In this document: positions 11,905-48,592 of the stretch, one piece after another
Layout of the letters: every line of letters starts with the position of its first letter
Numbering within the stretch: position 1 is the first letter of the stretch
Made by a program: the position numbers and the translations under genes
Notes under the pieces: model-generated
The model's input: the letters and a program-made list of their open reading frames with translations, nothing else
The model's database searches: none
Told to the model about the DNA's origin: nothing
Source: an uncultured Anaerolineaceae bacterium
GTDB taxonomy: Bacteria; Chloroflexota; Anaerolineae; 4572-78
Direction of reading: 5' to 3'
DNA length: 59,291 bases
Assembly: GCA_964413895.1 (NCBI GenBank)
Contig: CAYPUV010000001.1
Coordinates: forward strand, 1-59,291

Positions 11905-11917
11905 CCGGCGACCGCGT

Positions 11918-31034: not shown

Positions 31035-32411
31035 ATGGCTCCGGTGGATGTTGACCTACTTTTTCGTGACCCCGCCCACACCGCTTTCCTTGCTGCGGAA
31101 AGCAGTGAAAATTCCATTGCACAACTGCTGGTGGCTCTGGCAAACAACGGGGGCGGAACCATTGTCATTGGGCTCACCAAAACCGGCAAACCCCGTAAAT
31201 TTCCCCACCCCAGCGAAACCCGTGACCGCGTGATGCAGGCCGCGCTTCAGTGTGATCCGCCGCTGATCATTCCTGCTCCCGCATTACACCGGTACAACAA
31301 TCATCCCCTGCTTGTGATTTCTGTACCGCCCGATTTGCCCCACGTGTACAACATCGACGGACGATACCTTATTTGGGAGCAAGGACAGGCTGTGCCATTG
31401 CGGGGCAGCGCCCTGCGCGCACTTATTTTCGCTCGCGGCGAGGCTGGCTTTGACGGGATGATTGTATCCACGGCTACCCGCGACGATTTAAATTGGAATG
31501 CTGTGCTGGCTTACGTTGGCTCGGTAGAGGGATTACAGCACTTATCGCCGGAAGAGGCGTTGCTAAAGCGTGGTTGTCTGAAGATGGATGGCTCGGTACT
31601 GCGCCCAACCCACGCTGGTATTTTGCTGTTTGGCCGCGAGCCTCAAAAATGGCTTCCCCAGGCAGAAATAACTGTGGTCCGCTATCCGGGCTTGCAAATG
31701 ACCGACACCTTTTTACGGGCTGATATTCAGGGGACGTTGCCGGAACAGGCCCGCAAAGCCGAAACGTTTGTGCGCGAAAATATTGCGCAAGACGTAGCCA
31801 TCAATAGCTTGCAGCGCTCCGATGCCTATTTGTATCCCCTTGTCGCGGTACGCGAGGTAATTGTTAACGCATTGGCGCACCGTGATTACGGTATTCAGGG
31901 CGATAACATCCGCCTGCTGCTATTTGCCAATCGGCTGGAGTGTTACAGCCCTGGTCGCCTACCGGGGCACATCACAGTAGACAATATCTTGCAAGAACGC
32001 TTCAGCCGTAATGCCACCCTGGTGCAGGTGCTATTTGACATGGGTTTCATTGAACGGCTGGGTTATGGCATTGACCGTATTATCCGCAGCGTGGCCGAAC
32101 ACGGAATGCCCGCTCCCTCGATGGCAGAAACCCCGGCCGGGTTCAGAATTACACTCTTTACCCGCCAGCAAGCCACCGCAGCCCAGTCTCCGGCAGCGGT
32201 GCGGACATGGCTTGAAATGGGCCTGAACGAACGGCAAATTGCTGCCTTAGGCTTTCTGGCAGAGCACGGCCGCATTACCAATGCCGATTATCAGGCATTG
32301 TGCCCCTCGGTTAGTCCGGAAACCTTGCGCCGTGACCTGGCCGATTTGGTTCGGCGGGATATTCTGCTGCGCATTGGGGAAAAACGAGCCACTTTTTACA
32401 TTCTAAAGTAA
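31035..32411 (+). CDS. AlbA_2 (Schlafen-like) DNA-binding domain plus HATPase_c_4 plus C-terminal wHTH protein (putative ATP-binding regulator)
   Basis: 458 aa. AQLLVALANNGGGTIVIGL (AlbA_2-like), VREVIVNALAHRDY (HATPase_c_4 N-box-like), and a C-terminal LNERQIAALGFLAEHGRITNADYQAL...TLRRDLADLV wHTH. The start is 3 nt after the upstream stop. Confidence 0.65.
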   Translation: MAPVDVDLLFRDPAHTAFLAAESSENSIAQLLVALANNGGGTIVIGLTKTGKPRKFPHPSETRDRVMQAALQCDPPLIIPAPALHRYNNHPLLVISVPPDLPHVYNIDGRYLIWEQGQAVPLRGSALRALIFARGEAGFDGMIVSTATRDDLNWNAVLAYVGSVEGLQHLSPEEALLKRGCLKMDGSVLRPTHAGILLFGREPQKWLPQAEITVVRYPGLQMTDTFLRADIQGTLPEQARKAETFVRENIAQDVAINSLQRSDAYLYPLVAVREVIVNALAHRDYGIQGDNIRLLLFANRLECYSPGRLPGHITVDNILQERFSRNATLVQVLFDMGFIERLGYGIDRIIRSVAEHGMPAPSMAETPAGFRITLFTRQQATAAQSPAAVRTWLEMGLNERQIAALGFLAEHGRITNADYQALCPSVSPETLRRDLADLVRRDILLRIGEKRATFYILK

Positions 32412-32413
32412 AA

Positions 32414-32443
32414 TATCCCACAGTATCCCACAGTATCCCGCAC
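32414..32443 (+). repeat. three tandem 10-bp repeats TATCCCACAG (third copy TATCCCGCAC)
   Basis: Read directly. The copies are exactly head-to-tail. An inverted CTGTGG at 32456-32461 abuts a -10-like TAAAAT at 32462-32467, upstream of the kinase gene at 32524. Confidence 0.8.
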
Positions 32444-32523
32444 AATGTTGGAAAACTGTGGTAAAATGATAGGCGTAGAAGATTAATTCTCTTTGCCCAT
32501 CGCAACAGTGGGGTCTTCACGCC

Positions 32524-35112
32524 ATGCATATGGAAAAGTTTTTCCAGGAACAAAAAATTTTTTTTGCCTATCAAGAGCCATGCGAGTTGTTTGATGCCAT
32601 CCTGGCGTTTCTCCCGCAGTTAGGGGCAGATTTTGGATCAATACTGATTCAAACTGCCGCGAACACCATCTATTTTCGATCTAGCATCCCCGGACAAGAA
32701 GAAATGGTTGGGCCGGCCGGCCGGCGCTTTGCGGCGCGACTAATTGAAGAGGGGGTGGAAGGCGCAATAATGCGCCGTGGCACGTCGGAGATAATTGCAG
32801 ATGTACAACTAGACCCGCGCTGGTACCGGGCAGAGTACCTGATGGAGGTTTGCCGGAGTGCGGTGTTGCTCCCCATTTCATTATTTAAGGTGCAGGCCGA
32901 GGGAGTTCTTTTACTCGGCAGCAAACAGGTCGATGTTTTCTCCTCGGTCAATTTACCTTTTTTAGAGATTGTCACGGCTCAATTGGGTTTTGCCATTGAA
33001 AACACGCTGTTGTTCCGCAACCAGGTTGAACACCTGGCTCAGTTGAGCGTCATCAACGAAGTTAGTCGGGCTGCCACGTCCATTCTCAATGCAAATTTAA
33101 TGCTCACCACTATTACCCAGGCTATTCAACAAAGTTTTAGCATTAACAGCGTGGGTATTTATCATTTTTCAGCCCCGGAGAAAAAAATAATCCTTGACGC
33201 ATTTACCGGGGCAGATGGTCGTTCTCATGCACAGGTAGATGTATCACCTTCGGCAATCCCTTTAGTTACGTGGGTTTTACAACATGGCTCCACCGCAGTG
33301 GTCAACGACATTAAGCTAGACGATCGCTTCAGCGCGGAACAAAAGCTAGCGCACATAAAATCGCAACTGGTCATTCCAATAAAACTGGGGAGTAAAATCA
33401 TCGGCGCGTTGAGCCTGGAAAGCGCCGAACTTGATGCCTTTGACCCCGCATTGGTTTCGGCGCTGGGAATGTTAGGGGAACAGTTGGCCGTAGCCATTGA
33501 AAATGCTCGCCTCTATGACGAACTGAATGATACCGTTAACGAACTCCTCTCGCTGAATAGTATTACCCAATCGGTTACCGCTTCATTGGATATGCAGCAA
33601 ACATTAACCCTTATCAGCGAACATGTAACGGTTATGCTCAATGTTGCTGCCACATCTGTTGCACTGCGCGATGACGAAACAGACGAAGTATGGTTTGCTG
33701 CCGCCTCTGGTGCAGGGTCCAGTACCGTGCTGGGGAAACGCCTCCATCTGGGGCAGGGGATAATTGGCTGGGTCGCCAAACATGGCCGTTCGCTGATTGT
33801 GCAAGATGTGTGGCGCGACCCGCGCTTTTTCCGCGAGATGGACAAACACAGTGGCTTTAATACCAAATCCATTCTGTGCGTTCCCCTCCAAACCAAAGGG
33901 AGATTAATCGGAGCTATAGAAGCAATCAATAAGTTAGAGGGTCAATTTACCACCCAAGACCTGAACCGGTTGACCGATTTAACCGCGCCAGCCGCTTCGG
34001 CTATTGAAAACGCACAATTGTACCAGCAGCTTGCGCAGCGTATGACCCAGGTGGAAAATTTGCGCGCCTTCAATCAAAACATCATCGAAAATATCACCAC
34101 CGGTCTAATTGCACTGGATACCGAAAAAAAGATTACCGTATTCAATAAAGCAGCGGCTGCTTTGCTGGGCTTAAATGCAACTGACCTGCTTGGCAAACCT
34201 GTAGAAACAGGATTGTCACTGGTGCCACAATTGATTGCACCGTTGCTTGCACCCTTGGTCGCCCGCGAAACAAAAATTGCCCGCGACCTGGAATTGTCAC
34301 ACTGGGGCGGTGGTGTTGTGACCGTGACTGTCACTGCTGCGCCAATCTACAGTGCAGATAACCAACTTTCTGGGGTGGTGGGGCTGATTGAAGATATAAC
34401 CGAGTTGAAAACACTGGAAGCCGAACGCCGCCGATTGGATAGATTGGCCGCGTTGGGCGAAATGTCGGCTGTGGTGGCCCACGAGTTGCGCAACCCAATT
34501 GCAGGCATTGCTGCTGGCGTCAATTACCTCACCAGACACGTCGCCGCCGATAACACCATTGAGCAGGCCAGCCAGATGATTTTGAAAGAGGTGGATCGCG
34601 TACATCGTATTGTTGAAGATATTTTGCTGGTTGCCCGCCCCCTTAATTTACAGAAAACGCCGCAGGCCATTGAGAGCATAATTGATACAATCCGCCAACG
34701 ATTCGCCGCCAAATTGAAGGACGGGTCCATTCAGCCTTCTTTCCACATTGCCAAAGATCTGCCGCACCTATGGCTCGATCGAGCCAGAATAGAACAAGTT
34801 TTCAATAATCTGTTTGATAACGCGCTTCAGGCAATGCCAAATGGGGGGAGCATCGATGTTTCTGTGGCGCAATCGGTCGATCAATCGGAACTGGTGTGCT
34901 TGTTCCGCGATACAGGCCCGGGGATACCAACCGTTGAACGGCAAAAAATTTTTGATCCATTCTACACTACCAAAACACGTGGCACGGGGTTAGGTCTGGC
35001 ATTGTGTCGGCAAATCATCGAGGCGCACCACGGACACATTCGCCTTGTAAATTCAGAACGTGGCGGAACTACATTTGAAATAAGATTACCGCTTTTGCAG
35101 GAAAATCAATGA
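32524..35112 (+). CDS. cytoplasmic multi-GAF/PAS sensor histidine kinase
   Basis: 862 aa. H-box VVAHELRNPIAGI, N-box FDNALQAMPNGG, DTGPGI and GTGLGLALC. Several GAF-like modules end in AIENA/TLLF-type motifs. Confidence 0.9.
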   Translation: MHMEKFFQEQKIFFAYQEPCELFDAILAFLPQLGADFGSILIQTAANTIYFRSSIPGQEEMVGPAGRRFAARLIEEGVEGAIMRRGTSEIIADVQLDPRWYRAEYLMEVCRSAVLLPISLFKVQAEGVLLLGSKQVDVFSSVNLPFLEIVTAQLGFAIENTLLFRNQVEHLAQLSVINEVSRAATSILNANLMLTTITQAIQQSFSINSVGIYHFSAPEKKIILDAFTGADGRSHAQVDVSPSAIPLVTWVLQHGSTAVVNDIKLDDRFSAEQKLAHIKSQLVIPIKLGSKIIGALSLESAELDAFDPALVSALGMLGEQLAVAIENARLYDELNDTVNELLSLNSITQSVTASLDMQQTLTLISEHVTVMLNVAATSVALRDDETDEVWFAAASGAGSSTVLGKRLHLGQGIIGWVAKHGRSLIVQDVWRDPRFFREMDKHSGFNTKSILCVPLQTKGRLIGAIEAINKLEGQFTTQDLNRLTDLTAPAASAIENAQLYQQLAQRMTQVENLRAFNQNIIENITTGLIALDTEKKITVFNKAAAALLGLNATDLLGKPVETGLSLVPQLIAPLLAPLVARETKIARDLELSHWGGGVVTVTVTAAPIYSADNQLSGVVGLIEDITELKTLEAERRRLDRLAALGEMSAVVAHELRNPIAGIAAGVNYLTRHVAADNTIEQASQMILKEVDRVHRIVEDILLVARPLNLQKTPQAIESIIDTIRQRFAAKLKDGSIQPSFHIAKDLPHLWLDRARIEQVFNNLFDNALQAMPNGGSIDVSVAQSVDQSELVCLFRDTGPGIPTVERQKIFDPFYTTKTRGTGLGLALCRQIIEAHHGHIRLVNSERGGTTFEIRLPLLQENQ

Positions 35113-35810
35113 AGCCTCAAATACTGATTGTTGATGACGAAGACACAATTCGGTACTTTTTAAAGTTAGAGTTGCAGCAGCAGGGGTACGATGTGCTAGA
35201 CACTGCCACCGGAGAAGAAGCGTTGGCGCTGTTAAAAACGCGCCCCGTCCATGTGGCTCTGCTTGATTTACGCTTGCCAGGGATTGGTGGCTTGGACGTG
35301 ATGCGTTATATTCGTCAGTATTCACCGCAAACCAGCATTATCATTATTACGGCCTACGCCACTCTGGGTTCGGCAATTGATGCGCTAAAACACGGCGCAC
35401 ACGATTACATCATGAAACCGTTCGACACGGCTGAAGTGCTGGCTTCTGTGGCCGATGGCATTGCCCGTCAGGGAGCGGCGGCCGCTGTAACCATTCGGTC
35501 AGACCAGGCATTGCATGCCGGCCCATTGACGCTGGATTTTAAAAGTCGACAAGTTTTTTTGCACCAGGTTCCTCTCAATCTCACCCCCACCGAGTTTGAT
35601 TTGCTGGTCTGTTTTATGAAAGCGCCCAACACGGCGCTAGACGCGGTTACCCTATTGCACACTATTCGCGGCTACATACTATCTGAAGCCGAGGCCAGGA
35701 GCATTGTGCGCGTCCACATTCACCGGTTGCGGCACAAAATAGAAACAAACCCCGCTGACCCCACATTGCTCACCACCGTAAAAGGTGGACGGTATCGATT
35801 GACCGTTTAA
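35109..35810 (+). CDS. OmpR-family response regulator (REC plus winged-helix)
   Basis: 233 aa. ILIVDDED, VALLDLRLP and IMKPF, with a C-terminal LTPTEFDLL...VRVHIHRLRHKIE...GGRYRL trans_reg_C pattern. It overlaps the kinase gene by 4 nt (ATGA). Confidence 0.9.
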   Translation: MKPQILIVDDEDTIRYFLKLELQQQGYDVLDTATGEEALALLKTRPVHVALLDLRLPGIGGLDVMRYIRQYSPQTSIIIITAYATLGSAIDALKHGAHDYIMKPFDTAEVLASVADGIARQGAAAAVTIRSDQALHAGPLTLDFKSRQVFLHQVPLNLTPTEFDLLVCFMKAPNTALDAVTLLHTIRGYILSEAEARSIVRVHIHRLRHKIETNPADPTLLTTVKGGRYRLTV

Positions 35811-35926
35811 TCCACGCCATTAATATTTTTCATTTTTTTGCGCAACGAACAGCTTACCACACGGGCGGGCTTTCGCGTAGCGTAGGCGCTGACTGGAGAC
35901 TGCCAGCGGGCGTGCAGCCGTGAAAA

Positions 35927-35945
35927 CTGTAACGATTCTGTAACG
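35927..35945 (+). repeat. direct repeat CTGTAACG-N3-CTGTAACG (11-bp register)
   Basis: Copies at 35927-35934 and 35938-35945, with another CTGT at 35961. The repeat lies between the OmpR-type regulator gene and the receiver gene at 36034. Confidence 0.6.
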
Positions 35946-36033
35946 CCAAAATTAAACGTTCTGTGCTATAGTAAAATTATTAAAAAAGCGAAAAAATCGC
36001 TATAATCTGGCTGAGTGTAGAGAAGCGTGCTTT

Positions 36034-36396
36034 ATGCAAAAAACAATATTATACATCGAAGATAATGCGGATAACAGATTACTCATAAAACGGGTGTTAG
36101 AAGCGGAAGGATACCAAATGCTGGAAGCTTCGTGCGGAGAAGAGGGTGTTTCTCTGGCAACTCGTCTCAATCCCGATTTAATTTTGATAGATATCAATCT
36201 CCCCGACATTGACGGTTATGAAGTTACCCGGCAATTGCGCAAAAAATTAGCCCTGGCTGAAACCCCCATCTTGGCGATAACAGCTAATGTGATGCAAGGA
36301 GACCGCGAAAAAACGCTAAAAGCCGGGTGCAACAATTACATTGGCAAACCCATCGATGTTGATTTATTACCCAAACTCATTGCCCAATATCTATAA
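36034..36396 (+). CDS. single-domain response regulator
   Basis: 120 aa. ILYIEDNADN, DLILIDINLP, ILAITAN and YIGKPI. Confidence 0.9.
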   Translation: MQKTILYIEDNADNRLLIKRVLEAEGYQMLEASCGEEGVSLATRLNPDLILIDINLPDIDGYEVTRQLRKKLALAETPILAITANVMQGDREKTLKAGCNNYIGKPIDVDLLPKLIAQYL

Positions 36397-36410
36397 TATT
36401 CAGGTGTGTT

Positions 36411-36884
36411 ATGTCTCAGACAATATCAAACGCAATTGATCACAAACAAAAATTAGCGTCACTTCCGTCTATTGAGCCGAAAGATGCGCAGGTTTTGGTT
36501 GTAGAAGATAATTTGCAGAACCTTGTTCTGGTAGCGCGCCTGATGGCTTTTATTGGCGTAAAAAACTATGAATGGAAAGCTTCTGGGTGGCAGGTGCTGG
36601 AGTTTGCGCTCACGATGCCTCAACTTGATCTGGTCTTGATGGACATTCACCTGCCGCACGAAGATGGATTTGAAGCACTGCGCAACTTAAGAGCAGAACC
36701 GAGGTTTGCACACACGCGCATTGTTGCCGTTACCGCAGATGCCACTCCTGCCACAATGAGAAAAGCAAAACAGGCCGGCTTTGATGGCTTTTTGGGTAAA
36801 CCAATTGACCCGGATAAATTCCCCGCACAAATTAAGACAATTTTACAGGGTCAACAAGTATGGGATTTGGGTATTGTTACGTGA
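36411..36884 (+). CDS. single-domain response regulator with an N-terminal extension
   Basis: 157 aa. VLVVEDNLQN, DLVLMDIHLP, IVAVTAD and FLGKPI. Confidence 0.9.
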   Translation: MSQTISNAIDHKQKLASLPSIEPKDAQVLVVEDNLQNLVLVARLMAFIGVKNYEWKASGWQVLEFALTMPQLDLVLMDIHLPHEDGFEALRNLRAEPRFAHTRIVAVTADATPATMRKAKQAGFDGFLGKPIDPDKFPAQIKTILQGQQVWDLGIVT

Positions 36885-36921
36885 TTAATCTGTCTTCCCC
36901 CATTAGTTAAAGGACTAAGCT

Positions 36922-39180
36922 ATGGTTCAAGTTCAATTTGAACAAGAGCAATCCCTCAAAGCACAAGCCTTCGAGGTATTATCTGGCGTCGGCGCGGCAC
37001 AAACACCGCAAGAGCTTCTCGACGCGCTCAAGCAAGTCCCCCTTATAAAAAATGCTACTCATACGCTGATTATCCTTTTTGAGGGAACTTCTGCTGCGGC
37101 CCAATCGGCGGCGGTTGTTGCAGCATTAAATAATCAATCTGCCGACCAGTCATGGGTGGGGTACACATACAACCCAAGTGTCGCTCCGTGGCTCTGGCAC
37201 GCTGAAACAAACACGCCTTTTTTGGTCGATAATGTGCAAACTGACTCCCGCTTGCAGGAGACGGCAGCCGAACCGTGGCTCGAGCCGGCGATGCAATCTA
37301 TTGTTGCCGCCGCATTGGTTGCTTCTGAGGAGCATTTGGGGTGGCTGGTGCTTACGCATACAATGCCAGAAGCCTTTTCTACCGCCAACGCCTATTTTTT
37401 GCAATTGCTGGCTCCCTATTTAGCCGCCGCTTTGCAGCAGCAAACTTACGTGCAGCAGGCACAAAAAAGCCTGGCCAATGTAAAAAAGATGTTCAATATA
37501 GCCCAAAAGCTGGGTGGGGTAGTAGAAGCGGCGGAAGTTTACCAGATCATGGCGCAAGCTTTTGTGTCTGCCGGAGCGAATACATGTATCCTGGCCACCT
37601 ATCTTGATGTTGACAGTGCTGCCTTGCCCCAACACGGCAAAATTGTTGCCGTAACTCAAAAAACGGACGCCTCCCGCCAAAATAACGCCCAAGCGCTGGA
37701 GGGAACCACGCAAACCCTGGCCGATTTTCCGCTGCTTTCAGTGGCCCTCACCTCTGGCGAGCCGGAAACCTTTATTAATATCGCTGCTACGCCCAACCTG
37801 AGTGCCGCCGAACGTGACTACTTTCACCAATTGGGAATCCAGGCTGCATTAATAGTGCCCCTGGTAGAGCGGATAAATGGCAAACCGGTAGGATACCTTA
37901 CCCTTGAATATCCTCATCAACAGCCACCTTCCCCAGACGAATTAACGTTTATTCGAGACCTGGCCCAGCAAACCGTGCGCACCATTGCTCATGCCCAGCA
38001 AATAGCCAACACCCGGCGGCGGGCCAGACAACTACAAACCGGCGCTGAAATTTCTAAAATTACCAGCCGTATTCTTGACGAGGAACAACTAATTGCCAGG
38101 GCCGTAACGCTGATTAAAGAGGGGTTTGACCTATATTACGTGGGATTATTTCTGGTTGACGACACAAACGAATGGGCGGTTTTACGCGCGGGCACGGGCG
38201 CAGAGGGCAAAGAGCAAATCCAGGCCAATCACCGATTATCCATTGCTGGGGAAGATTCAATGATTGGGTGGGCCATCGCGCGCAGGCAAGCACGTATTGC
38301 CCTGGATGTGGGACAAGACGCAGTGCGCTTTGACAACCCGTATTTGCCCCACACCCGTTCAGAAATGGCACTCCCTTTGGTTAGTCGAGAACAAGTTATT
38401 GGTGCAATCACCATTCAAAGCACCCAAAGGGCCGCTTTTTCCGAAGACGACAGTGCATCTTTGCAAATTATGGCCGACCAACTGGCCAACGCCATTCTCA
38501 ATTCACGGTTGTACCATAACATCCAGCAATCTACCGCAGAACTGAACACCCTGCTAGAAATCAATAGAGATATTTCCGCCAGCACTAATTTACAAGATTT
38601 ACTAGACCTGATTATTACCAAGGCCACGACAATAGTAAATGGCGATCAAGGCACCATTTTCCTGTTGCAGGGGGATACACTGATCCCAAAATCTGTAGTG
38701 GGGGGGTACACGGAAGAAATGCTGGCCGTTCGCCCCCGGGTAGGCGACGGCGTTTCTGGGACCGCGGCCCAAACTCGTCAGGCAGTATCGCACCTGTTTG
38801 CCGCGCCAGACCAGGGGGTACAGGTTCCTGGCACACCCGCAGTGCCAGAGGCCGTTGTTGCTGTGCCTATTCAAAACGATAAAGAAGTTATTGGTGTGTT
38901 GCTCATTCGTAGAATTAATATTGTTCGCCCTTTCTCCACAACTGAAATAAAATTATTGGAAGGGATGGCGGTTCAGGCAGCAATTGCCTGGCGAAACTTG
39001 CATCTACTTGCATCCGTTGAGCAAAGCTATCATCGCGAGCAAATAATCCGTCAGCTAACCGCAAAAATACATGCTGCATCTAGCGTGGAGAATATTTTGC
39101 AAACAACCGTAACCGAACTATCGAAAGCCCTCAATGCCCCCGGTGGGGTTATCCGTTTGGCTCCTAAAAAACCAGAATGA
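36922..39180 (+). CDS. multi-GAF protein without a recognisable output domain
   Basis: 752 aa. At least three GAF-like modules, for example LYYVGLFLVDDTNEWAVLRAGTG...TRSEMALPLVSREQVIGAITIQS. No H-box or ATPase motifs. Confidence 0.75.
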   Translation: MVQVQFEQEQSLKAQAFEVLSGVGAAQTPQELLDALKQVPLIKNATHTLIILFEGTSAAAQSAAVVAALNNQSADQSWVGYTYNPSVAPWLWHAETNTPFLVDNVQTDSRLQETAAEPWLEPAMQSIVAAALVASEEHLGWLVLTHTMPEAFSTANAYFLQLLAPYLAAALQQQTYVQQAQKSLANVKKMFNIAQKLGGVVEAAEVYQIMAQAFVSAGANTCILATYLDVDSAALPQHGKIVAVTQKTDASRQNNAQALEGTTQTLADFPLLSVALTSGEPETFINIAATPNLSAAERDYFHQLGIQAALIVPLVERINGKPVGYLTLEYPHQQPPSPDELTFIRDLAQQTVRTIAHAQQIANTRRRARQLQTGAEISKITSRILDEEQLIARAVTLIKEGFDLYYVGLFLVDDTNEWAVLRAGTGAEGKEQIQANHRLSIAGEDSMIGWAIARRQARIALDVGQDAVRFDNPYLPHTRSEMALPLVSREQVIGAITIQSTQRAAFSEDDSASLQIMADQLANAILNSRLYHNIQQSTAELNTLLEINRDISASTNLQDLLDLIITKATTIVNGDQGTIFLLQGDTLIPKSVVGGYTEEMLAVRPRVGDGVSGTAAQTRQAVSHLFAAPDQGVQVPGTPAVPEAVVAVPIQNDKEVIGVLLIRRINIVRPFSTTEIKLLEGMAVQAAIAWRNLHLLASVEQSYHREQIIRQLTAKIHAASSVENILQTTVTELSKALNAPGGVIRLAPKKPE

Positions 39181-39190
39181 GAACAAGCAA

Positions 39191-42100
39191 ATGAAAGTGC
39201 ACAACAATTTGAAAGAGTTGGTATCGCCCAAAAGCTGGTTTGATACAAGACACAGTTTGCGAAAAACCTTGTTTTGGTCTTTTGTGCTGGTAATTTTCCT
39301 CCCTATGTTTCTGGTGGGGAGTGTCGTTGCCTACACCAGTATCACCGCCAGCACCGAAAGCAGCGAAGATAAACTGGTGTCGATTGCTATTTTGAAAGAG
39401 GCTGCTATTAACCGCTGGCTTGATGGCGTGGTAGGCCGTCTCACTGAAGCCAGTACCATAGACATTGCTGCACGCACGCTGTATGAGTTTGAACGTCGCC
39501 CCGCCTTTGAAGAGCACTTGGTCTCTCGTTTCCGGCTCGATATGCTTGCCATCCGGGGCAACTCAGATGATTTTGAAAAGCTAACCTTGCTGGATTTAAC
39601 CGGAACAGTTAAAGCCTCTACCGATGTCGAAGAAGTTGGTGAAGATTATAGCAACCGAAACTTTTTCATCCTGGGCCAGAAATCTCTCTACATCACCCCC
39701 CTGTCTGTGGACAAAGGAACCAATTTTCCCACCCTGTACGTTGCTATTCCGGTTACCGCTGCCAAAAAAAATGTGGTGGGGGTATTGGTTGGCAAAGTAA
39801 AACTAAGTACTTTAAGCGAAATATTACAAGAAGCGAATGAATTGGGGCCTGAAAGCGAAACTTATTTGGCAACCCAGGCGCGTTCGGTGTTAGCCCCTGA
39901 CCTTACCCCTCGCCCAAAAACCTCGTTCTCTGCCGGTATTGAACAAGGGTTTATGGAACAGGAAAAGCTGAAATTCTACCATAACTATGCAGATGTGCCG
40001 GTGGTGGGGGCACAACGCTTCATTGGCCGTTTGGGGGCCGTATTGTTGGTAGAGCAGTCACAAAGAGCCGCGTTTGCTTCCATCACGCGCACGGTAAAAT
40101 TGTTGTTTGTGCTTTCTCTTATCATTGTTGCTGGAGCAATGTTCCTGGGATTCATGCTTTCAAACCATATTGTAAATCCTATTCGTAGTTTAACCGAGGT
40201 GGCTACAGAAATTGCCGCGGGACATCTGACCCAGACCATCACCTTGAAACGCCAGGATGAAGTTGGCATTCTAGCCGTCGCCTTCAATAATATGACCCGC
40301 CAACTTCGTGAGCTAATCAACACGCTAGAAACGAGAGTGAAACAACGCACCCAGGCATTGGCGCATCGCGGTGCGCAATTACGTACTGCTATCGCTGTGT
40401 CTCAGGCTGCCAACACCCTCTTAGACCCCCAAACATTGGTTCAGCAAGCGGTTGACCTGGTGAAGGACCAGTTTGAGTTTTATTACGTGGGACTGTTTTT
40501 GGTGGATGAACGCAATCAATGGGCGGTGTTAAAGGCCGGCACAGGGGAGGCTGGGCAAAAGCAACTTGCCGATAAACATCGCTTAAAAATTGATGACGCT
40601 TCGATGGTGGGATGGTGTATTAACCATCGCCAACCACGCATTTCCGCTGATGTTGAATATGAAAAGGTTCGTTTTGTTAACCCCTATTTGCCCGAAACAC
40701 GCTCTGAAATGGCGCTCCCCCTCATTAGCCGTAACCTGATTTTAGGGGCCATCAGCATTCAAAGCACGCTTCCCGAAGCCTTCTCAAAAGAAGATATTGA
40801 TGTACTGCAAACTGTGGCCGATCAAATTGCAAACGCCCTGCACAATAGCCAACTCTTCCGCCAAATTCAAATAATTCAGGCACGCTTCCAGGAACTGTAT
40901 CATCGCGCGCCGACTGGGTATTTTACGCTGGCGCTTGATGGGAAAATTAAGGAAATTAATGATACTGAACTGGCGATGTTGGGGTACAAGGGGCAGCGGG
41001 AGCAGATTGTCAATCAACGCAACATTACTGAATTTATGACCGCCGGGAGTAAAGAAAAATTTGAAGAACTCCTTGTTCAGTTGCGTATTGGGGAATTGGA
41101 CCGTGTAGAAAACCTGGAGCTTACTATTCTCCGCCAGGAAACACGCATTCCGGTACTTGTAACCGCAACCATTGAGCCGGAAAAAACAGATCGCCCCAGA
41201 GAAATTTACGCCACGGCACAAGACATTAGCCAGCAGAAGACAATTGAGGCCGCCCGCGAGGCGCTGTTGCGAGAAACCAGCATCTTGCACACCCTGGGCC
41301 AACATTTGTTGGTTGCTGATAGCTTTGAAGAAATTTATCAAGCCGGGCTTGACGCCATAAAAACAACCGCGCCCACCTGGGGGAGCGCAGTATTGCTGAG
41401 TGACCAGGCACGGCCAACGCCAAAAATTGAACTAACCGCCGTTTGGAATAATCCCAACCTTCAGGCAACCCCGTTGCCCATTGGCACAACCTTCTCTGTT
41501 GTAGAACTAGGGTTGCAAAATATTTTGAGTGTGGGACAAACGCTTATTTCCCAAAATGCCCCCGTCGATACAATATTTAGTGAACCGATGAGGCAATTGC
41601 TGGCCAATTTACAGATTGTAAGCCTTGTTGGCGTGCCGCTTTGGAGCGGCAGCACCGTTATTGGGTTTGTCTTGGTGGCGCATCAAACAGACACCCCGTT
41701 TGCGGCGGAAGAGATCCGCTTGTTTGAAGGCATAACGCGGCAGATGTCTATGAGCATCAACAACCACATTCACCTGCAACAAGCCATTCAACGCGCCACA
41801 CAATTACAGGCCGCTGCTGAAGTTGCCAAAAACACCACTGCCGAAACCAGCCTGGAAACACTGTTGCCGCATGTGGCCAACCTCATCCAGGAACGCTTTG
41901 ATTATTACGCCACTTCCATTTTTCTGGTAGATGACTATCGCCAGTATGCCGTATTAGAAGCGGTTGCCGGGCAACCTGAACCGGACCCGGGGAGTGACAC
42001 TTACAAGTATAAAATACCGCTCAACAGCAAAAGCCAGGTGTGTACAGCTATTGCCCAGGCCAGCATTCAAAACGTGCCCGATGTAACCCAAAGTTCCGTG

Positions 42101-44734
42101 TTTTTGGATCACGCATTATTGCCAGAGGCACGCTCTGAAATAACCTTGCCCCTCATTGTCCGTGGACAGGTGATTGGCGCGCTGGACGTGCAGAGTAAAA
42201 AGCGAGACGACTTTCAATATGGGGAAGAAATGGTGTTGCAAACCATCGCTGACCAGTTGGCAAATGCTATTCACGTCGCGCGCCTGCTGGAAAAAGAACG
42301 GGCGGCCACTCGTGAAATTCAAGACTTGCACCAGCGTTACCTTGAAAAATCGTGGGACGTCTATTTGCAGGCGCAAGAGGATCCGGCCAAAACCACTTTT
42401 GTACTCACCCCGCCAGATGGAAAAGATGAAGATGTTTCTCCCGCGTGGCTGCCCGCTGTGCCCGACGCCCCGATGTCAGCTTCTTACGCACTGAAACCCA
42501 ACGCGGGGAACGGGGCAGGCGATGATGCGTCGGCACATTCTTTGCTGGTAAGCCCTCTTACGCTCAGAGACACCCCTATCGGCGCGGTGGGGTTGGTCGA
42601 CAGCGCCGGCCGCACGTGGTCTGAAGATGACCGGGCAATCATTGAAGCCGTAAGCGCTCAAGCCGCCCTGGCTATAGACAACGCGCGCCTTATTGAGCAA
42701 ACTGAGCGCTGGGCTGCCTTGCTGAAAACCAGCACTGAAATCAGCCAAACAGTCACGGCCACCCTGGATATGGACGCGCTACTTTCCCAAAGTGTATCGC
42801 TAATTCAGGCGCAGTTCAAGTTCAAAGCCGTAAATCTATATTTAACCGACCCCGCCACATCTAATTGGGAAGCAACCGTTTACCGCAGCCGAAAACTCAC
42901 CACGTCCCGTGCCATCACACCCACACGACTCACCCTCCGTTTTGACAACCTTCCCTGGCAGGCCATTCACCAGCGGCAGCCTGTATTGGCACAAGCCAGC
43001 AATCCAGAGTCGCTGGCGTTTTTGCCCCCCGACGCTTCCGATGTAAAATCGGCGCTGGTAATCCCGCTGCTGGTGGGGCAGCAAGTAATCGGCGCGCTAG
43101 AGCTACACAGTCGGCAAAGCAACGCCTTTGACCAAAACCAGCAGGCCGTGCTTGAAATCCTGGCCGCTCAGGTGGCTACGTCTATTCGGAATGCCACCGC
43201 ATATCAGGAACAGCATAATATTGCCGAGAAACTTCGTGAGGTTGACAAACTCAAAACACAATTTCTGGCTAATATGTCTCACGAATTGCGTACCCCGTTG
43301 AATTCAATCATCGGCTTTTCCAGGGTTATTTTGAAGGGCATTGATGGTCCTCTCACCGAACTACAAAAAACAGACCTGGCTTCAATTCATCAAAGTGGCA
43401 AACATCTGCTAGACCTGATTAACAATATTCTAGATTTGGCAAAAATTGAAGCCGGGAAAATGGAAATTAACTTTGCCCCCATCAACTTTAATGATATGAT
43501 TAACGTAATTATTTCCACCGCCGTGGGATTGGTCAAAGACAAGGAGGTGGAAATAATCAGCGATGTTGCAGAGCATCTGCCCACCATTCAGGGGGACGAA
43601 ACGCGGCTACGGCAAGTATTGCTCAACCTGGTTTCAAACGCCGCCAAATTTACCGACACAGGAACCATCACCATCATTGCCGGGTACGATGCGCACCAGG
43701 TATGGATTAGTGTTAAAGATACAGGTATTGGCATTGCCCAAGAAAACCTGGATCGTATTTTCGATGAATTTACCCAGATTGATGCTTCTACCACGCGAAA
43801 AGCGGGCGGCACAGGGTTGGGATTGCCCATTACCCGCAAATTCATTGAACTTCACCACGGTCGCATCGACGTTGAAAGTGAGCTGGGTGCGGGGTCTACA
43901 TTCACCGTAACGCTTCCCCTGCTGACCGATGCTGATGACCACCCGCGTGAACACCCATCACCCCCTGCCGCCGAGGCAAAGCAGCAGGCCAGAGGAGCGA
44001 TTTTGGTGATTGATGGAGACACCAGAATTGCCGCCTACTATGAACAATATTTGCAAGGGAAAGCAATAGATGTTGTGAGCTTGACAAAGGGGGAACAAGC
44101 CGTTGTCACTGCTAAAAACTTGCAGCCCGCCGCCATCTTATTAGACATTTTGTTACCGGATATTGATGGCTGGCAGGTGTTGCGAGAGCTAAAAGAAAGT
44201 CCCCACGCAGCCCACATTCCGGTGATTATTTGCAGTATTGTTGAAGACCGCTTCCGGGCAACACAGCTTGGGGCAACCGACTATTTGGTGAAACCCATTA
44301 TTAAAAACGATTTACTTGAGGCGCTGGAAAAAATAGAGCGCGATAAAAATAATCTAAAACGTGTGTTAGTAATTGATGACCACGCCGACGACATCTTGCT
44401 CATTCGCCGCGTATTAGAATCGCGGGCGTGCCAGGTTGTGGAAGCCACAAACGGCGTGGAAGGATTGGAGAGTATTTATAATAATCACCCCGCTCTGGTA
44501 ATTTTAGATTTAACTATGCCAGAATTAGACGGATTCGGCGTGCTGCAAACGCTAAAAAGCGACCCCAAAACAGCCGATATTCCGGTGATTGTCATTACCG
44601 CCAGAGAATTAAACCCCACTGAAAAGGACACCATCACCCAGCAGGCTGCTGCGCTGCTAAGTAAAGGCCGATTCTCCGGCACGGAACTGCTACAACTTGT
44701 TGATCGCCTGTTGAATGGTGTAATAATAGCTTAA
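39191..44734 (+). CDS. giant membrane hybrid sensor histidine kinase (TM-extracytoplasmic domain-TM, HAMP, GAF x4 or more, PAS, HisKA, HATPase_c, REC x2)
   Basis: HAMP segment IVNPIRSLTEVATEIAAGHL...VAFNNMTRQL, H-box MSHELRTPLNSIIGF, N-box LNLVSNAAKFT, DTGIGI and GTGLGLPIT. Two C-terminal REC domains (ILVIDGD...ILLDILLPDIDG and VLVIDDHADD...VILDLTMPELDG). The start was chosen at ATG 39191 (MKVHNN), 10 nt after the upstream stop; the ORF is open from 39134. Confidence 0.85.
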   Translation: MKVHNNLKELVSPKSWFDTRHSLRKTLFWSFVLVIFLPMFLVGSVVAYTSITASTESSEDKLVSIAILKEAAINRWLDGVVGRLTEASTIDIAARTLYEFERRPAFEEHLVSRFRLDMLAIRGNSDDFEKLTLLDLTGTVKASTDVEEVGEDYSNRNFFILGQKSLYITPLSVDKGTNFPTLYVAIPVTAAKKNVVGVLVGKVKLSTLSEILQEANELGPESETYLATQARSVLAPDLTPRPKTSFSAGIEQGFMEQEKLKFYHNYADVPVVGAQRFIGRLGAVLLVEQSQRAAFASITRTVKLLFVLSLIIVAGAMFLGFMLSNHIVNPIRSLTEVATEIAAGHLTQTITLKRQDEVGILAVAFNNMTRQLRELINTLETRVKQRTQALAHRGAQLRTAIAVSQAANTLLDPQTLVQQAVDLVKDQFEFYYVGLFLVDERNQWAVLKAGTGEAGQKQLADKHRLKIDDASMVGWCINHRQPRISADVEYEKVRFVNPYLPETRSEMALPLISRNLILGAISIQSTLPEAFSKEDIDVLQTVADQIANALHNSQLFRQIQIIQARFQELYHRAPTGYFTLALDGKIKEINDTELAMLGYKGQREQIVNQRNITEFMTAGSKEKFEELLVQLRIGELDRVENLELTILRQETRIPVLVTATIEPEKTDRPREIYATAQDISQQKTIEAAREALLRETSILHTLGQHLLVADSFEEIYQAGLDAIKTTAPTWGSAVLLSDQARPTPKIELTAVWNNPNLQATPLPIGTTFSVVELGLQNILSVGQTLISQNAPVDTIFSEPMRQLLANLQIVSLVGVPLWSGSTVIGFVLVAHQTDTPFAAEEIRLFEGITRQMSMSINNHIHLQQAIQRATQLQAAAEVAKNTTAETSLETLLPHVANLIQERFDYYATSIFLVDDYRQYAVLEAVAGQPEPDPGSDTYKYKIPLNSKSQVCTAIAQASIQNVPDVTQSSVFLDHALLPEARSEITLPLIVRGQVIGALDVQSKKRDDFQYGEEMVLQTIADQLANAIHVARLLEKERAATREIQDLHQRYLEKSWDVYLQAQEDPAKTTFVLTPPDGKDEDVSPAWLPAVPDAPMSASYALKPNAGNGAGDDASAHSLLVSPLTLRDTPIGAVGLVDSAGRTWSEDDRAIIEAVSAQAALAIDNARLIEQTERWAALLKTSTEISQTVTATLDMDALLSQSVSLIQAQFKFKAVNLYLTDPATSNWEATVYRSRKLTTSRAITPTRLTLRFDNLPWQAIHQRQPVLAQASNPESLAFLPPDASDVKSALVIPLLVGQQVIGALELHSRQSNAFDQNQQAVLEILAAQVATSIRNATAYQEQHNIAEKLREVDKLKTQFLANMSHELRTPLNSIIGFSRVILKGIDGPLTELQKTDLASIHQSGKHLLDLINNILDLAKIEAGKMEINFAPINFNDMINVIISTAVGLVKDKEVEIISDVAEHLPTIQGDETRLRQVLLNLVSNAAKFTDTGTITIIAGYDAHQVWISVKDTGIGIAQENLDRIFDEFTQIDASTTRKAGGTGLGLPITRKFIELHHGRIDVESELGAGSTFTVTLPLLTDADDHPREHPSPPAAEAKQQARGAILVIDGDTRIAAYYEQYLQGKAIDVVSLTKGEQAVVTAKNLQPAAILLDILLPDIDGWQVLRELKESPHAAHIPVIICSIVEDRFRATQLGATDYLVKPIIKNDLLEALEKIERDKNNLKRVLVIDDHADDILLIRRVLESRACQVVEATNGVEGLESIYNNHPALVILDLTMPELDGFGVLQTLKSDPKTADIPVIVITARELNPTEKDTITQQAAALLSKGRFSGTELLQLVDRLLNGVIIA

Positions 44735-44860
44735 TCACGGTGAGCTTCAGCATTCATCCGCCAGCGATTGACAACTTCAAAATGCACCAATTTCTAATCT
44801 CCAAGTTCCAAAACTGTGAGCAATCTATTTCTTCATAAACACTCAATTTAACAACCTCCT

Positions 44861-46522
44861 ATGACAAAAAAAATCACCCTAAAATGTACGCACTGTCAAC
44901 ATCAAACACCCTATCATCCGGGGTTGGCCCACTGTCCCCATTGCGGCGGAGACTGGTTGGACCCCATTTATAATTTAGAAAAAGTAAAAGCCCTGTGGGC
45001 GCAAGAACTGTCTGCGCGCCCCCAAACAATGTGGCGCTATTGGGAATTGCTCCCTCTACTGAACAAGGACAACATCGTTTCAATGGGCGAAGGGTTTACC
45101 CCCCTCTTGCCACTCCCCAACCTGGGGCTTATGTTGGGTCACCCTCATCTTTATATGAAAGACGAGCGTCAGGGGCCAACCGGCTCTTTCAAAGACCGGC
45201 AGGCAGCGCTGGCAATTTCTGTATTTAAAGAGAGCGGCATCAGCGAGGCAGTGGTGGCCTCAACCGGCAACGTGGGCATTTCCTATTCTGCATATTCAGC
45301 CAGAGCGGGCATAAAATTATGGACATTCCTCAACAGCACCGTTCCCCAGGACAAGATGAGAGAGATCACCCTCTATGGCACAGAGGTGGTGAAAGTAACG
45401 GCCACGTATGACAAAACCAAAGTTGTGGCGGCTCAGTTTGCTCAACAAAAGGGGTTCTTTTTGGACAAAGGGTTAAAAAACCTGGCGGCCAAAGAAAGTA
45501 TGAAAACCGTAGCCTTTGAAATTGCAGAACAACTGGGTAACTTGCTTGAACCGGATGGCAAGGGGCGCTTTATTGCCCCTGATTGGTATGCCCAGGCTGT
45601 TAGTGGCGGTTTGGGGCCGGTGGGCGTGTGGAAAGGCTTTTTGGAACTCAAGGAAATGGGATTGATTGACAAGTTACCCAAACTTGCTCTTATTCAAGCG
45701 ACAGGCTGCGCGCCGATGGTCAATAGCTTTGCAGCCGGTCTTGCCGAAGCAGAGCCGGTTGAGAACCCCCAAACCCTCATTGCCACCGTTGCCACCGGTT
45801 CGCCGGGCGCGGCCTACCCCTACCTCCGAAATGTTGTTTTAACCCATGGTGGGCATTTTGAAGCCGTCCCCGATGGCGAAACCTTTAAGGCGATGCACGT
45901 GCTGGCCCAAATGGAAGGCATCTCAATGGAACCTGCCGCCGCGATGACCTTCGCCGGAGTCTTCAAAATGATTGGCCGGCGTCTTATTCGCCCCGATGAA
46001 ACTGTGGTGATTAATTGTTCAGGACACACCTTCCCCGTGGAGAAACATCTGCTGGACGAAAAACGGGTGCGGGCTGTATCCCCCGATGCCGTATCTCCAC
46101 CCGATACCGGCGAGGGGGTGCTGACCGCGCTAGACCACCTTGACGACCGGGTGCAGCGCATCGCTATTATTGAAGACGACCCCAACGCGGCTCGCCTGTT
46201 GCGGCGAATTTTGCAAGCCAAAGGCAACTATCACATTAGCGAAGCGGCAGACGGCCAGGCCGGACTGGACATAATCAAACAAGAGCATCCCGATTTGATA
46301 TTGCTGGACCTGATGCTGCCCATCATAGACGGCTTTGCCTTGCTAGACCAAATGAAAGTAGACCCGGACCTCAAGCATATTCCCGTGATTGTTGTCACGG
46401 CCAAATCGCTGACCTCATACGATAGAAAACGTTTGTCTGGACGGGTGCGGGCTTTGTTACGCAAAGGCACGTTTATGGAAGATGACTTGCTGGAAGATAT
46501 TCTGGAGGCACTTGAAGCTTGA
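44861..46522 (+). CDS. threonine-synthase-like fold-type II PLP enzyme fused to a C-terminal receiver (REC) domain
   Basis: 553 aa. N-terminal Cys4 ribbon (CTHC...CPHCGG), PLP-lysine motif GSFKDRQ (K111) and ASTGNVG. The C-terminal ~120 aa contain IAIIEDDPN, DLILLDLMLPIIDG (D483), VIVVTAK and LLRKG. Confidence 0.8.
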   Translation: MTKKITLKCTHCQHQTPYHPGLAHCPHCGGDWLDPIYNLEKVKALWAQELSARPQTMWRYWELLPLLNKDNIVSMGEGFTPLLPLPNLGLMLGHPHLYMKDERQGPTGSFKDRQAALAISVFKESGISEAVVASTGNVGISYSAYSARAGIKLWTFLNSTVPQDKMREITLYGTEVVKVTATYDKTKVVAAQFAQQKGFFLDKGLKNLAAKESMKTVAFEIAEQLGNLLEPDGKGRFIAPDWYAQAVSGGLGPVGVWKGFLELKEMGLIDKLPKLALIQATGCAPMVNSFAAGLAEAEPVENPQTLIATVATGSPGAAYPYLRNVVLTHGGHFEAVPDGETFKAMHVLAQMEGISMEPAAAMTFAGVFKMIGRRLIRPDETVVINCSGHTFPVEKHLLDEKRVRAVSPDAVSPPDTGEGVLTALDHLDDRVQRIAIIEDDPNAARLLRRILQAKGNYHISEAADGQAGLDIIKQEHPDLILLDLMLPIIDGFALLDQMKVDPDLKHIPVIVVTAKSLTSYDRKRLSGRVRALLRKGTFMEDDLLEDILEALEA

Positions 46523-46541
46523 TACCGGAGAATCCCGCGTT

Positions 46542-47186
46542 ATGACCATTCCCTACCACATTGTGCTGGCTTCTGGCTCACCCCGTCGTCAGGCGTTAAT
46601 GCATTTGCTTAACCTGCCGTTCAGCGTTCACACTGCTAACATTGATGAAACTCCATTGCCCGGCGAGCCTCCTGTAGACCTGGTGTGTCGATTGAGTCGG
46701 CAAAAAGCGCAGGCCGTCGCCTCCCATCACCCGCAAGCCTTAATCATCGCCGCCGATACAATTGTAGTGCTTGATGATCACATTTTGGGAAAACCGGCAA
46801 AACCGGCAGCAGCTCGCGCTATGCTCGTGCGGCTGCGAAATCGAGACCATTTTGTGCACAGTGCCATTACGTTTTTACGTCCCCAGACCGGCCAATACTA
46901 CACTGCACTCAGCAGCACTACTGTGACCATGCGAAATTACACTGATGCGGAAATTGACGCCTACATTGCCACCGGCGATTCAATGGACAAGGCCGGGGGG
47001 TACGCCATTCAGCACCACGGTTTTGCGCCGGTTGCCCGCGTAGACGGCTGTTACGCCGGCGTAATGGGGTTTCCATTGAAACATTTAGGAGCAGGACTGG
47101 CTCGGTTTGGTATTCGTATTGACCATCCAGCCGAAACGTGTACGCAATTTACCGGGCAGCCATGTTGTATAGATCAACAACCGTGA
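46542..47186 (+). CDS. maf: Maf-family nucleoside triphosphate pyrophosphatase
   Basis: IVLASGSPRRQALM, IIAADTIV, GKP and DKAGGYAIQ motifs. The ATG at 46542 is preferred over the ORF start at 46482, which overlaps the upstream gene. Confidence 0.85.
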   Translation: MTIPYHIVLASGSPRRQALMHLLNLPFSVHTANIDETPLPGEPPVDLVCRLSRQKAQAVASHHPQALIIAADTIVVLDDHILGKPAKPAAARAMLVRLRNRDHFVHSAITFLRPQTGQYYTALSSTTVTMRNYTDAEIDAYIATGDSMDKAGGYAIQHHGFAPVARVDGCYAGVMGFPLKHLGAGLARFGIRIDHPAETCTQFTGQPCCIDQQP

Positions 47187-47211
47187 AACCAAGATCGGGA
47201 CAAAAAAGTCT

Positions 47212-47240
47212 TTGACAACCCCTCTTGATGAATGTATAAT
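47212..47240 (+). promoter_or_regulatory. consensus sigma70 promoter driving the T-box leader
   Basis: TTGACA (47212-47217), an exact 17-nt spacer, then TATAAT (47235-47240). Confidence 0.7.
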
Positions 47241-47246
47241 CACCAC

Positions 47247-47477: not shown

Positions 47478-47509
47478 TTTCAAAAAGAATGTAGAAAAGG
47501 AGAGCTGTT

Positions 47510-48421: not shown

Positions 48422-48488
48422 AAGTGAAAAAGCAAGCAGCAATTCCCGTTTTGGATAACCATATGGGGCTACCACCATGGGTATAGCA

Positions 48489-48592
48489 CACAGATGACAC
48501 AGATCGAACAGATTAATACGGATAAAATATAAAAATCAGTAAAAATCAGTGTAATCTGTACAATCCGTGTGCCATCATCTGTTTAATGGCAC
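48489..48592 (+). repeat. repeat-rich AT-rich region upstream of serS
   Basis: Three tandem 9-mers (CACAGATGA, CACAGATCG, AACAGATTA; 48489-48515). AAAAATCAGT x2 (48531-48550). Two inverted ATCTGT copies (48554-48559, 48577-48582). A 7-bp hairpin GTGCCAT/ATGGCAC (48569-48592). Confidence 0.6.

Follow-up and report, generated by a model that had tools for sequence, protein, structure and literature searches.

Organisation of the gene cluster

The 59,291-nucleotide stretch of DNA analysed here (contig CAYPUV010000001.1 of an uncultured Anaerolineaceae bacterium, hereafter the window) contains a cluster of seven signalling genes that ends in a pyridoxal-phosphate (PLP) enzyme fused to a receiver domain. 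Open reading frames (ORFs) were called from the window, and domains were assigned with Pfam. An earlier note, made from the sequence alone, had described the seven genes as a single sensory cluster. All seven ORFs are indeed present on the + strand, and the same-strand run continues beyond them on both sides (24329-51516). A comparison with related loci reveals two units in this region, namely a kinase/regulator pair at 32524-35810 and a five-gene module at 36034-46522, with which a downstream Maf gene probably shares a transcript. The five-gene module is conserved across several Anaerolineae orders.

The first unit consists of the histidine kinase HK1 (32524-35112, +) and the OmpR-type response regulator RR1 (35109-35810, +). 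HK1 has the domain order GAFx3-PAS-HisKA-HATPase_c, with His653 in the H-box, and a hydropathy scan finds no convincing membrane segment, in agreement with the cytoplasmic location proposed in the earlier note. RR1 combines REC and Trans_reg_C domains, and its α1 helix is unlike that of the other receivers in the alignment. The reported ATGA overlap can be read directly in the sequence, and a HisKA/HATPase_c gene overlapping a REC/Trans_reg_C gene is the arrangement of an OmpR-type two-component system. In the related loci L081 and L084, the pair is missing, and an AlbA_2 gene (the homologue of window 31035-32411) directly precedes the first stand-alone receiver. HK1 and RR1 are therefore an ordinary classical two-component pair outside the conserved module, and the proposed seven-gene unit does not hold. 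L001 is the only locus with a comparable kinase/OmpR pair ahead of the receivers. The gap between the two units (35811-36033, +) is 223 nucleotides long, and a weak promoter-like match lies at 35799-35827.

The second unit begins with two stand-alone receivers, RECa (36034-36396, +) and RECb (36411-36884, +), which are 14 nucleotides apart and each contain a single Response_reg domain, as described previously. The phosphorylation residues of RECa are intact, and RECb carries an N-terminal extension and a conserved C-terminal VWDLG tail. The third gene encodes GAFp (36922-39180, +), a soluble protein of 752 residues; Pfam finds four GAF domains and nothing else, neither an output domain nor any other, which bears out its description as a GAF-only protein.

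The fourth gene encodes a membrane hybrid histidine kinase (HHK, 39191-44734, +) of 1847 residues, as assigned by Pfam and hydropathy. Its N-terminal part comprises transmembrane segments at residues 23-53 and 293-329, a dCache region at 55-227, a HAMP domain at 323-374 and a GAF/PAS array at 412-1334. The dCache_1 match lies between two hydrophobic segments and scores 37 bits, under the Pfam cut-off of 45 bits. The domains after HAMP are, in order, GAF, PAS, four GAF, HisKA, HATPase_c and two Response_reg; the earlier reading of HAMP, at least four GAF modules, PAS and two receivers thus agrees with Pfam, which gives five GAF and one PAS. The core consists of HisKA (1355-1422, with His1364), HATPase_c (1468-1577), REC1 (1604-1712) and REC2 (about 1723-1844). 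An in-frame alternative ATG at 39134, 57 nucleotides upstream, would make the gene overlap that of GAFp by 47 nucleotides; gene-caller lengths of 1834-1836 residues for the relatives are nearer to the 39191 start. The fifth gene (44861-46522, +) encodes the PLP enzyme, in which Pfam finds the expected PALP and Response_reg domains.

The count of five receivers against one kinase core within 36034-46522 is correct, and several single-domain receiver genes with one kinase core and no Hpt domain correspond to the layout of a branched pathway. No Hpt domain (PF01627) is found in HHK when it is scanned as five overlapping segments at E<=1, so that the search for a hidden Hpt domain suggested earlier gives the absence that had been claimed. 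Neither Hpt nor a second DNA-binding domain is found in GAFp (E<=0.01) or in the other cluster proteins. Scans of most other genes of the window (E<=0.01 or stricter) and of the module of L036 likewise find no Hpt, although the genome may encode one elsewhere. Pfam finds no DNA-binding output domain in the module; Trans_reg_C is present only in RR1, which is the sole DNA-binding output of the cluster, as stated in the earlier note.

A ThrC-like enzyme with a C-terminal receiver

The enzyme contains a Cys4 zinc ribbon (44885-44944), a PALP domain (45077-46024, residues 73-388), a linker (46028-46144) and a receiver (46160-46489, residues 434-543). The PLP lysine is Lys111, and the phospho-acceptor Asp483 is encoded at 46307-46309. 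The PALP domain (203 bits) has the fold of threonine synthases, which is fold-type II with the Schiff-base lysine in an S-F-K-D-R motif. K111 is invariant in 120 homologues, as is most of the PALP core, and the N-terminal Cys4 ribbon is conserved. Among solved structures, class I threonine synthases are the closest in sequence (146 bits, about 35% identity). The best structural matches of the AlphaFold model are again class I threonine synthases (TM-score 0.82, normalised to target length), together with the cysteate synthase CapA2. The model has a mean pLDDT of 81, with confident PALP and REC domains and values below 50 for linker residues 390-428.

The PALP part fails both threonine synthase equivalog cut-offs, scoring 142.8 against 167.1 on TIGR00260 and 260.4 against 303 on PRK08197; controls of the zinc-ribbon type that have the canonical site residues reach 285-337 on TIGR00260. 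The canonical residues, which are T88, N154-S155, R160 and N188 in the Thermus enzyme and which we take to form the substrate-phosphate site, are replaced by V138, K203-G204, A210 and G249, and the replacements are the same or similar throughout the fused clade. The Thermus, Aquifex, M. tuberculosis, B. subtilis and Arabidopsis enzymes all retain the canonical residues, as do proteins P0189, P0198, P0228 and P0241. Judged from its sequence, the protein is best classified as a ThrC-like PLP enzyme of unassigned specificity and does not qualify as a threonine synthase. K203 and K211 might take over from the missing phosphate ligands, so a divergent threonine synthase is still a possibility. No canonical ThrC is found in about 1.4 Mb of the relatives' loci, a negative of little weight given the partial genome coverage. 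Automatic annotation names such proteins 'threonine synthase' (JGI) or 'pyridoxal-phosphate dependent enzyme' (NCBI). The earlier proposal of a metabolic terminal output is thus upheld as far as an enzyme with an intact receiver is concerned, and the word metabolic is uncertain, as the enzyme falls short of a threonine synthase.

A search of 1.84 billion protein representatives reveals a large and varied superfamily of zinc-ribbon ThrC-like proteins, one branch of which is made up of the fused clade and a few relatives without the fusion. PALP and Response_reg domains occur together in all 120 of the best protein clusters, and every named close homologue comes from Anaerolineae or Anaerolineales metagenome-assembled genomes. 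Other branches carry a C-terminal LeuA allosteric/dimerisation domain (P0174 and P0261, about 611-633 residues) or two tandem C-terminal receivers (P0122 and P0123, 708-715 residues). C-terminal regulatory fusions are recurrent in this superfamily.

Comparison of the receiver domains

All receivers between 35109 and 46522 pass Pfam PF00072, and an alignment with CheY identifies the phospho-acceptor Asp in each of them. The full acidic pocket, the Thr/Ser and the Lys are present in RR1, RECa, RECb, REC2 and the enzyme receiver. The exception is REC1, in which D-G replaces the acidic pair and Ser replaces Thr. Across 120 sequences of the enzyme receiver, E438/D439, D483 and K535 are invariant and T513 is nearly so; the domain, helix α5 included, is under strong purifying selection.

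The enzyme receiver is most similar to REC2 of HHK (86 bits), with which it has in common the motif K-G-x-F, unusual in place of K-P. The α1 pattern L-[LI]-[RK]-R-[IV]-L is common to the enzyme receiver, REC2 and RECa and is absent from RR1, REC1 and RECb. A slightly diverged form, E-L-V-R-R-I-L, occurs in the receiver of a receiver-histidine kinase (REC-HK) that is encoded next to the enzyme in many relatives. PleD and DivK are among the best family matches of the enzyme receiver. The nearest kin of RECa are the receivers of REC-HK proteins, with 48% identity both to the receiver of g35 (53535-54809 in the window) and to that of the enzyme-adjacent REC-HK of L083.

RECb is distinctive in its own right. 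Its conservation across orders exceeds that of the enzyme itself, its homologues in 15 loci contain a near-invariant α1 (NFVLIARLLAFxGV) and an EWKxxGW motif, and the C-terminal VWDLGI tail is absent from ordinary receivers.

Conservation of the module in relatives

Synteny was analysed in the best 80 of at least 594 relatives, with one genome per species; ORFs were called, compared with the window proteins and clustered, and each flank count uses only loci with enough sequence on the given side. In all 80 loci, which are spread over Anaerolineales, Caldilineaceae, Ardenticatenaceae, Promineifilaceae, Thermoflexus and Aggregatilineales, the matches extend through the enzyme receiver. The gene immediately upstream of the enzyme encodes a large GAF histidine kinase in 53 of 67 loci; immediately downstream, the most frequent neighbour is a REC-HK, in 59 of 76. 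Of the 64 loci with both flanks readable, 63 contain one or both of these kinases, so that the gene for the enzyme receiver is linked to a histidine kinase gene in a conserved manner. Where 9 kb or more of upstream sequence is available, RECa is found in 4 of 47 loci and RECb in 16 of 47, the latter with 56-76% identity across orders.

The order RECa-RECb-GAF protein-GAF kinase-enzyme/REC recurs in distant orders (L029, L036, L048 and L056), and the layout of RECa and RECb with a kinase is kept in these four loci and in L081 and L084. In L036 (Candidatus Leptovillus), the genes are tightly packed as RECa-RECb-four-GAF protein-GAF kinase-enzyme/REC-REC-HK, which Pfam confirms. Among closer relatives, L081 and L082 (enzyme 72% identical) have the order AlbA_2-RECa-RECb-GAF protein-1836-residue hybrid kinase-enzyme-Maf-DHDPS-SerS. 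L084 (68%) has AlbA_2-RECa-RECb-GAF/PAS protein-kinase-enzyme-REC-HK-Maf, the GAF/PAS protein being the counterpart of GAFp, and L083 (75%) has dCache-HAMP-GAF protein-GAF kinase/REC-enzyme-REC-HK-Maf-DHDPS-SerS. The counterparts of GAFp in L081, L084 and L036 are 774-1102 residues long. The last five genes are arranged alike far more often than chance would allow. The synteny check proposed in the earlier note for all seven genes thus succeeds for these five and fails for the kinase/OmpR pair.

The DHp helix of the upstream kinases, a stretch of 28 residues, is nearly invariant in about 45 loci. Outside this helix, the kinases are 35-50% identical across orders, and the upstream proteins differ greatly in their sensor parts from lineage to lineage. 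When DHp helices are compared with receiver α1 helices, that of the upstream kinase is invariant and that of REC-HK varies by clade, with about six independent groups.

The enzyme-adjacent REC-HK proteins are 410-450 residues long, have the order REC-HisKA-HATPase and are often encoded with a 4-nucleotide overlap with the enzyme gene. In the window and in L081/L082, no REC-HK gene is found directly after the enzyme. With hybrid and non-hybrid upstream kinases counted by hidden Markov models, the upstream kinase is hybrid in all 13 loci that lack REC-HK, and REC-HK is present in all 18 loci with a non-hybrid upstream kinase (Fisher p = 0.0016 with phylogeny ignored).

Additions to the module are lineage-specific (for example L031:5005-5820, L044:1306-2097, and L058:7597-9723 with its neighbours). 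Promineifilaceae-type loci contain a PF04672 S-adenosylmethionine methyltransferase gene between the GAF protein and the kinase, and other loci contain a ParA/MinD-like ATPase gene amid the GAF genes. In a third clade, which lacks the upstream kinase, a divergent Ser/Thr kinase-PP2C-FHA-VWA/DnaJ cluster adjoins the enzyme. In 37 of the 61 loci with at least 3 kb downstream (L006, L008, L027, L029, L036 and L044 among them), the enzyme or its REC-HK has as a neighbour, in either orientation, a gene for an EamA-family (DMT) transporter. No such gene is found in the window or in the closest relatives, which carry Maf at that place.

Proposed phosphotransfer within the module

The gene order, the domains, the intact catalytic and phosphorylation residues and the conserved linkage are features of the locus itself; which donor serves which receivers, in which direction the enzyme is affected and what it catalyses are what we infer from it, and the earlier note likewise offered the wiring as inference. 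In the reading that we favour, to which we give about an even chance, the locus contains two systems: the classical pair, which would control transcription independently, and a module in which the hybrid kinase directly charges several receivers, including that of the enzyme. The likenesses among the receivers and the fixed DHp helix point to the hybrid kinase as a shared donor. Direct branched transfer from the kinase histidine would be expected rather than a phosphorelay, because the module lacks Hpt and transfer from receiver to receiver is unexpected. Of the branched phosphorelay or phosphate-sink network suggested in the earlier note, the branched reading is therefore kept and the term phosphorelay is dropped.

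According to this model, HHK would combine a Cache signal from outside the cytoplasm with several GAF/PAS signals from within it, perhaps aided by the soluble four-GAF protein as an accessory sensor, and would autophosphorylate on His1364. The phosphoryl group would then pass directly to competing receivers, namely REC2 (and perhaps the atypical REC1), RECa, RECb and Asp483 of the enzyme. The phosphorylated, flexibly tethered receiver would alter the activity of the enzyme; phosphorylation-driven dimerisation of the receiver, with its effect on the dimeric PLP enzyme, would be the most plausible means of control. The confident PALP and REC domains of the AlphaFold model, joined by a low-confidence linker, fit such a tethered regulator. 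The stand-alone receivers could serve as sinks or branch points that shape the response.

Several points weigh against this reading. Hybrid kinases share their H-box motif across the whole family, which accounts for part of the DHp invariance independently of this system. The correlations between clades in the presence of REC-HK and of a hybrid kinase are phylogenetically non-independent, and the donor is assigned from gene linkage and receiver similarity. The single-chain AlphaFold model contains no PALP-REC interface. The enzyme receiver resembles orthodox stand-alone receivers, and its best solved match is RR468. Additionally, 12 loci contain the enzyme and REC-HK without an upstream kinase, and the usual donor to the enzyme receiver may be REC-HK, a gene outside the window, rather than the hybrid kinase.

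The last two points lead to the alternative that stands up best, which we take seriously and consider less probable than direct charging by HHK. In such a two-tier cascade, HHK would charge only receivers of the RECa type (RECa, those of HHK itself and that of REC-HK), and REC-HK or another orthodox kinase would be the donor of the enzyme. A cascade is favoured by the place of REC-HK, which in 59 of 76 loci comes right behind the enzyme and often overlaps it by 4 nucleotides, and by its being the sole adjacent kinase in the 12 loci just mentioned. HK853 is the partner kinase of RR468. The core of the enzyme-adjacent REC-HK best matches HK853, in parallel with the match of the enzyme receiver to RR468; RR468 is, however, a generic high-scoring receiver, which makes this match weak evidence. 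The REC-HK receiver of L083, a RECa paralogue by its 48% identity, fits input from the upstream kinase. In the genome studied here, the donor of a cascade would have to be encoded elsewhere, either as an adjacent-type REC-HK outside the window, as the paralogue at 53535-54809 or as the hybrid kinase at 12303-15845, the receiver of which is 46% identical to that of the enzyme. A cascade is made less likely by the lack of REC-HK after the enzyme in the window, in L081/L082 and in 13 further loci, all with a hybrid upstream kinase, and by the fact that the 53535-54809 protein belongs to another orthologous group, whose gene neighbourhood is distinct and conserved.

The REC-HisKA-HATPase gene at 53535-54809 (-) was first suggested as a displaced partner kinase since it is the best window match of the enzyme-adjacent REC-HKs, and it is rejected as such. 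It is only 39-45% identical to all enzyme-adjacent REC-HKs (the enzymes reach 75%), and its own orthologues are 65-73% identical. A 1.47-Mb contig carries both an adjacent REC-HK (L084) and an orthologue of 53535-54809 (L085), 130 kb apart, and L085 has the same PrmA/PreP context as the window gene. The gene thus belongs to a separate, widely conserved Anaerolineae family with conserved PrmA/PreP context. A 7-residue insertion in the ATP lid is common to this kinase and the enzyme-adjacent REC-HK family; the two are not orthologues.

A second alternative, which we regard as unlikely, is that the PLP domain is a sensor: binding or turnover of an amino acid would alter the gain or loss of phosphate by the receiver, and the protein would be a metabolite-gated phosphate sink that tunes other outputs. 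PLP domains serve as sensors in the MocR/GabR regulators. The receiver is C-terminal, as in hybrid kinases, and not N-terminal as in most response regulators; the receivers are many and the outputs few; and the substrate-site residues differ from those of catalytically proven threonine synthases. A sensor role accords poorly with the invariance of the PLP lysine and of most of the PALP core, and no alternative output is conserved in the module. The EamA transporter gene in 37 of 61 loci also argues against it, pointing to a metabolite that is made or used. Such a metabolite could be taken one step further. The ThrC-like enzyme would make an amino-acid-derived metabolite other than threonine. 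The EamA transporter, whose gene adjoins that of the enzyme in most lineages, would export it, and the Cache and GAF sensors of the nearby kinases would respond to it or to a related compound, so that kinase, receivers and enzyme would regulate themselves in a quorum-sensing-like loop of filamentous Anaerolineae; we hold this to be a long shot. CqsA and LqsA, PLP-dependent autoinducer synthases encoded beside sensor kinases, are loosely comparable.

That the enzyme merely lies beside unrelated kinases in two-component-dense genomes is scarcely credible, in spite of the five kinases in the 59-kb window and the wide variation of the upstream sensor parts, since the enzyme itself carries a receiver and the same orthologous families (the kinase with the near-invariant DHp helix, the REC-HK family and RECb) recur beside it in 63 of 64 evaluable loci from several orders.

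Comparison with known systems

The class I threonine synthases of Thermus thermophilus (1UIM/1V7C), Aquifex (2ZSJ), M. tuberculosis (2D1F) and B. subtilis (6CGQ) have the same fold-type II PLP fold and SFKDR motif as the window enzyme, and PRK08197-type enzymes also have its N-terminal Cys4 ribbon. The window enzyme differs from threonine synthases in lying below both NCBIfam cut-offs, in five changed site residues and in the extra C-terminal receiver. A regulatory module on a ThrC-type domain is likewise found in the plant threonine synthase (2C2B), which is activated by S-adenosylmethionine, and in the LeuA-domain ThrC-like proteins P0174 and P0261, whereas the module in the window is a phosphorylation-dependent receiver and not a small-molecule-binding domain.

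Response regulators with enzymatic outputs include the methylesterase CheB, the diguanylate cyclases PleD and WspR, the HD-GYP protein RpfG and PP2C-type proteins. Regulators of the CheB/PleD/WspR/RpfG type likewise have a receiver fused to an enzyme, are linked to kinase genes and are expected to have their catalysis controlled by phosphorylation. The output in the window differs in being a PLP enzyme of the amino-acid type, in which some 40 residues of low-confidence linker lead to a C-terminal receiver.

Branched pathways with phosphate sinks are represented by CheA-CheY1/CheY2 of Sinorhizobium and the multi-component RedCDEF system of Myxococcus. As in these systems, the module contains one kinase core and several single-domain receivers, without Hpt or a DNA-binding output. 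Unlike them, it lacks CheA/CheW machinery and ends in an enzyme, and its relatives add a second kinase gated by its own receiver. The core and receivers of HHK score best against the hybrid kinases of phosphorelays, namely ArcB, BarA, TorS and RcsC (313 bits for BarA, 271 for TorS); HHK is nevertheless far under the equivalog cut-offs, lacks Hpt and has two tandem receivers, the first with an incomplete acidic pocket.

No description of a receiver-fused threonine synthase-like enzyme or of such a module was found in the searchable literature. Enzymatic-output regulators and phosphate-sink pathways are known; the new feature is a PLP enzyme as the conserved output of a multi-receiver network across Anaerolineae orders. 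Characterised two-component outputs are almost all transcription factors, second-messenger enzymes or chemotaxis proteins. A receiver-PLP enzyme fusion, if it acts as proposed, would couple environmental sensing to a metabolic step directly and post-translationally, and the case is strengthened by the conservation of the fusion with kinases across Anaerolineae orders. Wastewater, sediments and hot springs harbour abundant Anaerolineae, whose genetics is poorly studied. The module offers a test case for how one kinase serves many receivers without Hpt and for the network role of kinases gated by their own receivers, as well as for the reaction of an unassigned branch of the threonine synthase superfamily. 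The automatic annotation 'threonine synthase' should be treated with caution in metabolic reconstructions of Anaerolineae.

Operon boundaries and other loci in the window

A Maf-like nucleotide pyrophosphatase gene (46542-47186, +) follows the enzyme, with a likely ATG at 46542 behind GGAG and 19 nucleotides after the enzyme stop; it is probably co-transcribed with the enzyme. L083 and L084 have the order enzyme-REC-HK-Maf, and L081 has enzyme-Maf with a 4-nucleotide overlap, so that Maf in the window occupies the place where relatives insert REC-HK between enzyme and Maf.

The 3' boundary of the module unit lies at 47212-47460 (+), where a perfect TTGACA-17-TATAAT promoter (47212-47240) precedes a T-box leader (47245-47460). 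The leader is a full-length match to RF00230 with 84.3 bits against a gathering score of 93 (E 1.6e-17) and has UCC (Ser) at the specifier position. Promoter and T-box are predicted to begin the DHDPS-family/serS transcription unit, in which the T-box is followed by a DHDPS-family gene (47510-48421) and serS (48567-49931). It is unusual for a Ser-tRNA T-box to govern a DHDPS-family gene along with serS, and the order Maf-DHDPS-SerS is conserved in L081 and L083. Rfam finds nothing at the gathering score in the window, the T-box being the only strong sub-threshold match, and no leader RNA before the enzyme gene. Promoter-like matches within 32000-48600 are about as frequent as in shuffled sequence, and the perfect consensus at 47212-47240 is the one informative match; terminator-like matches in the same range are modestly above expectation (32 against 21.8, standard deviation 4.4).

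On the opposite strand, the region 8561-20054 (-) contains two kinase genes between paralogues of the methylmalonyl-CoA mutase large subunit (10109-11788 and 18381-20054), with MeaB at 8561-9646. The kinases are a GAFx3-PAS-HK-REC protein (12303-15845), whose receiver is the one compared above with that of the enzyme, and a PAS-HisKA protein with two HATPase_c stretches (15829-17940).

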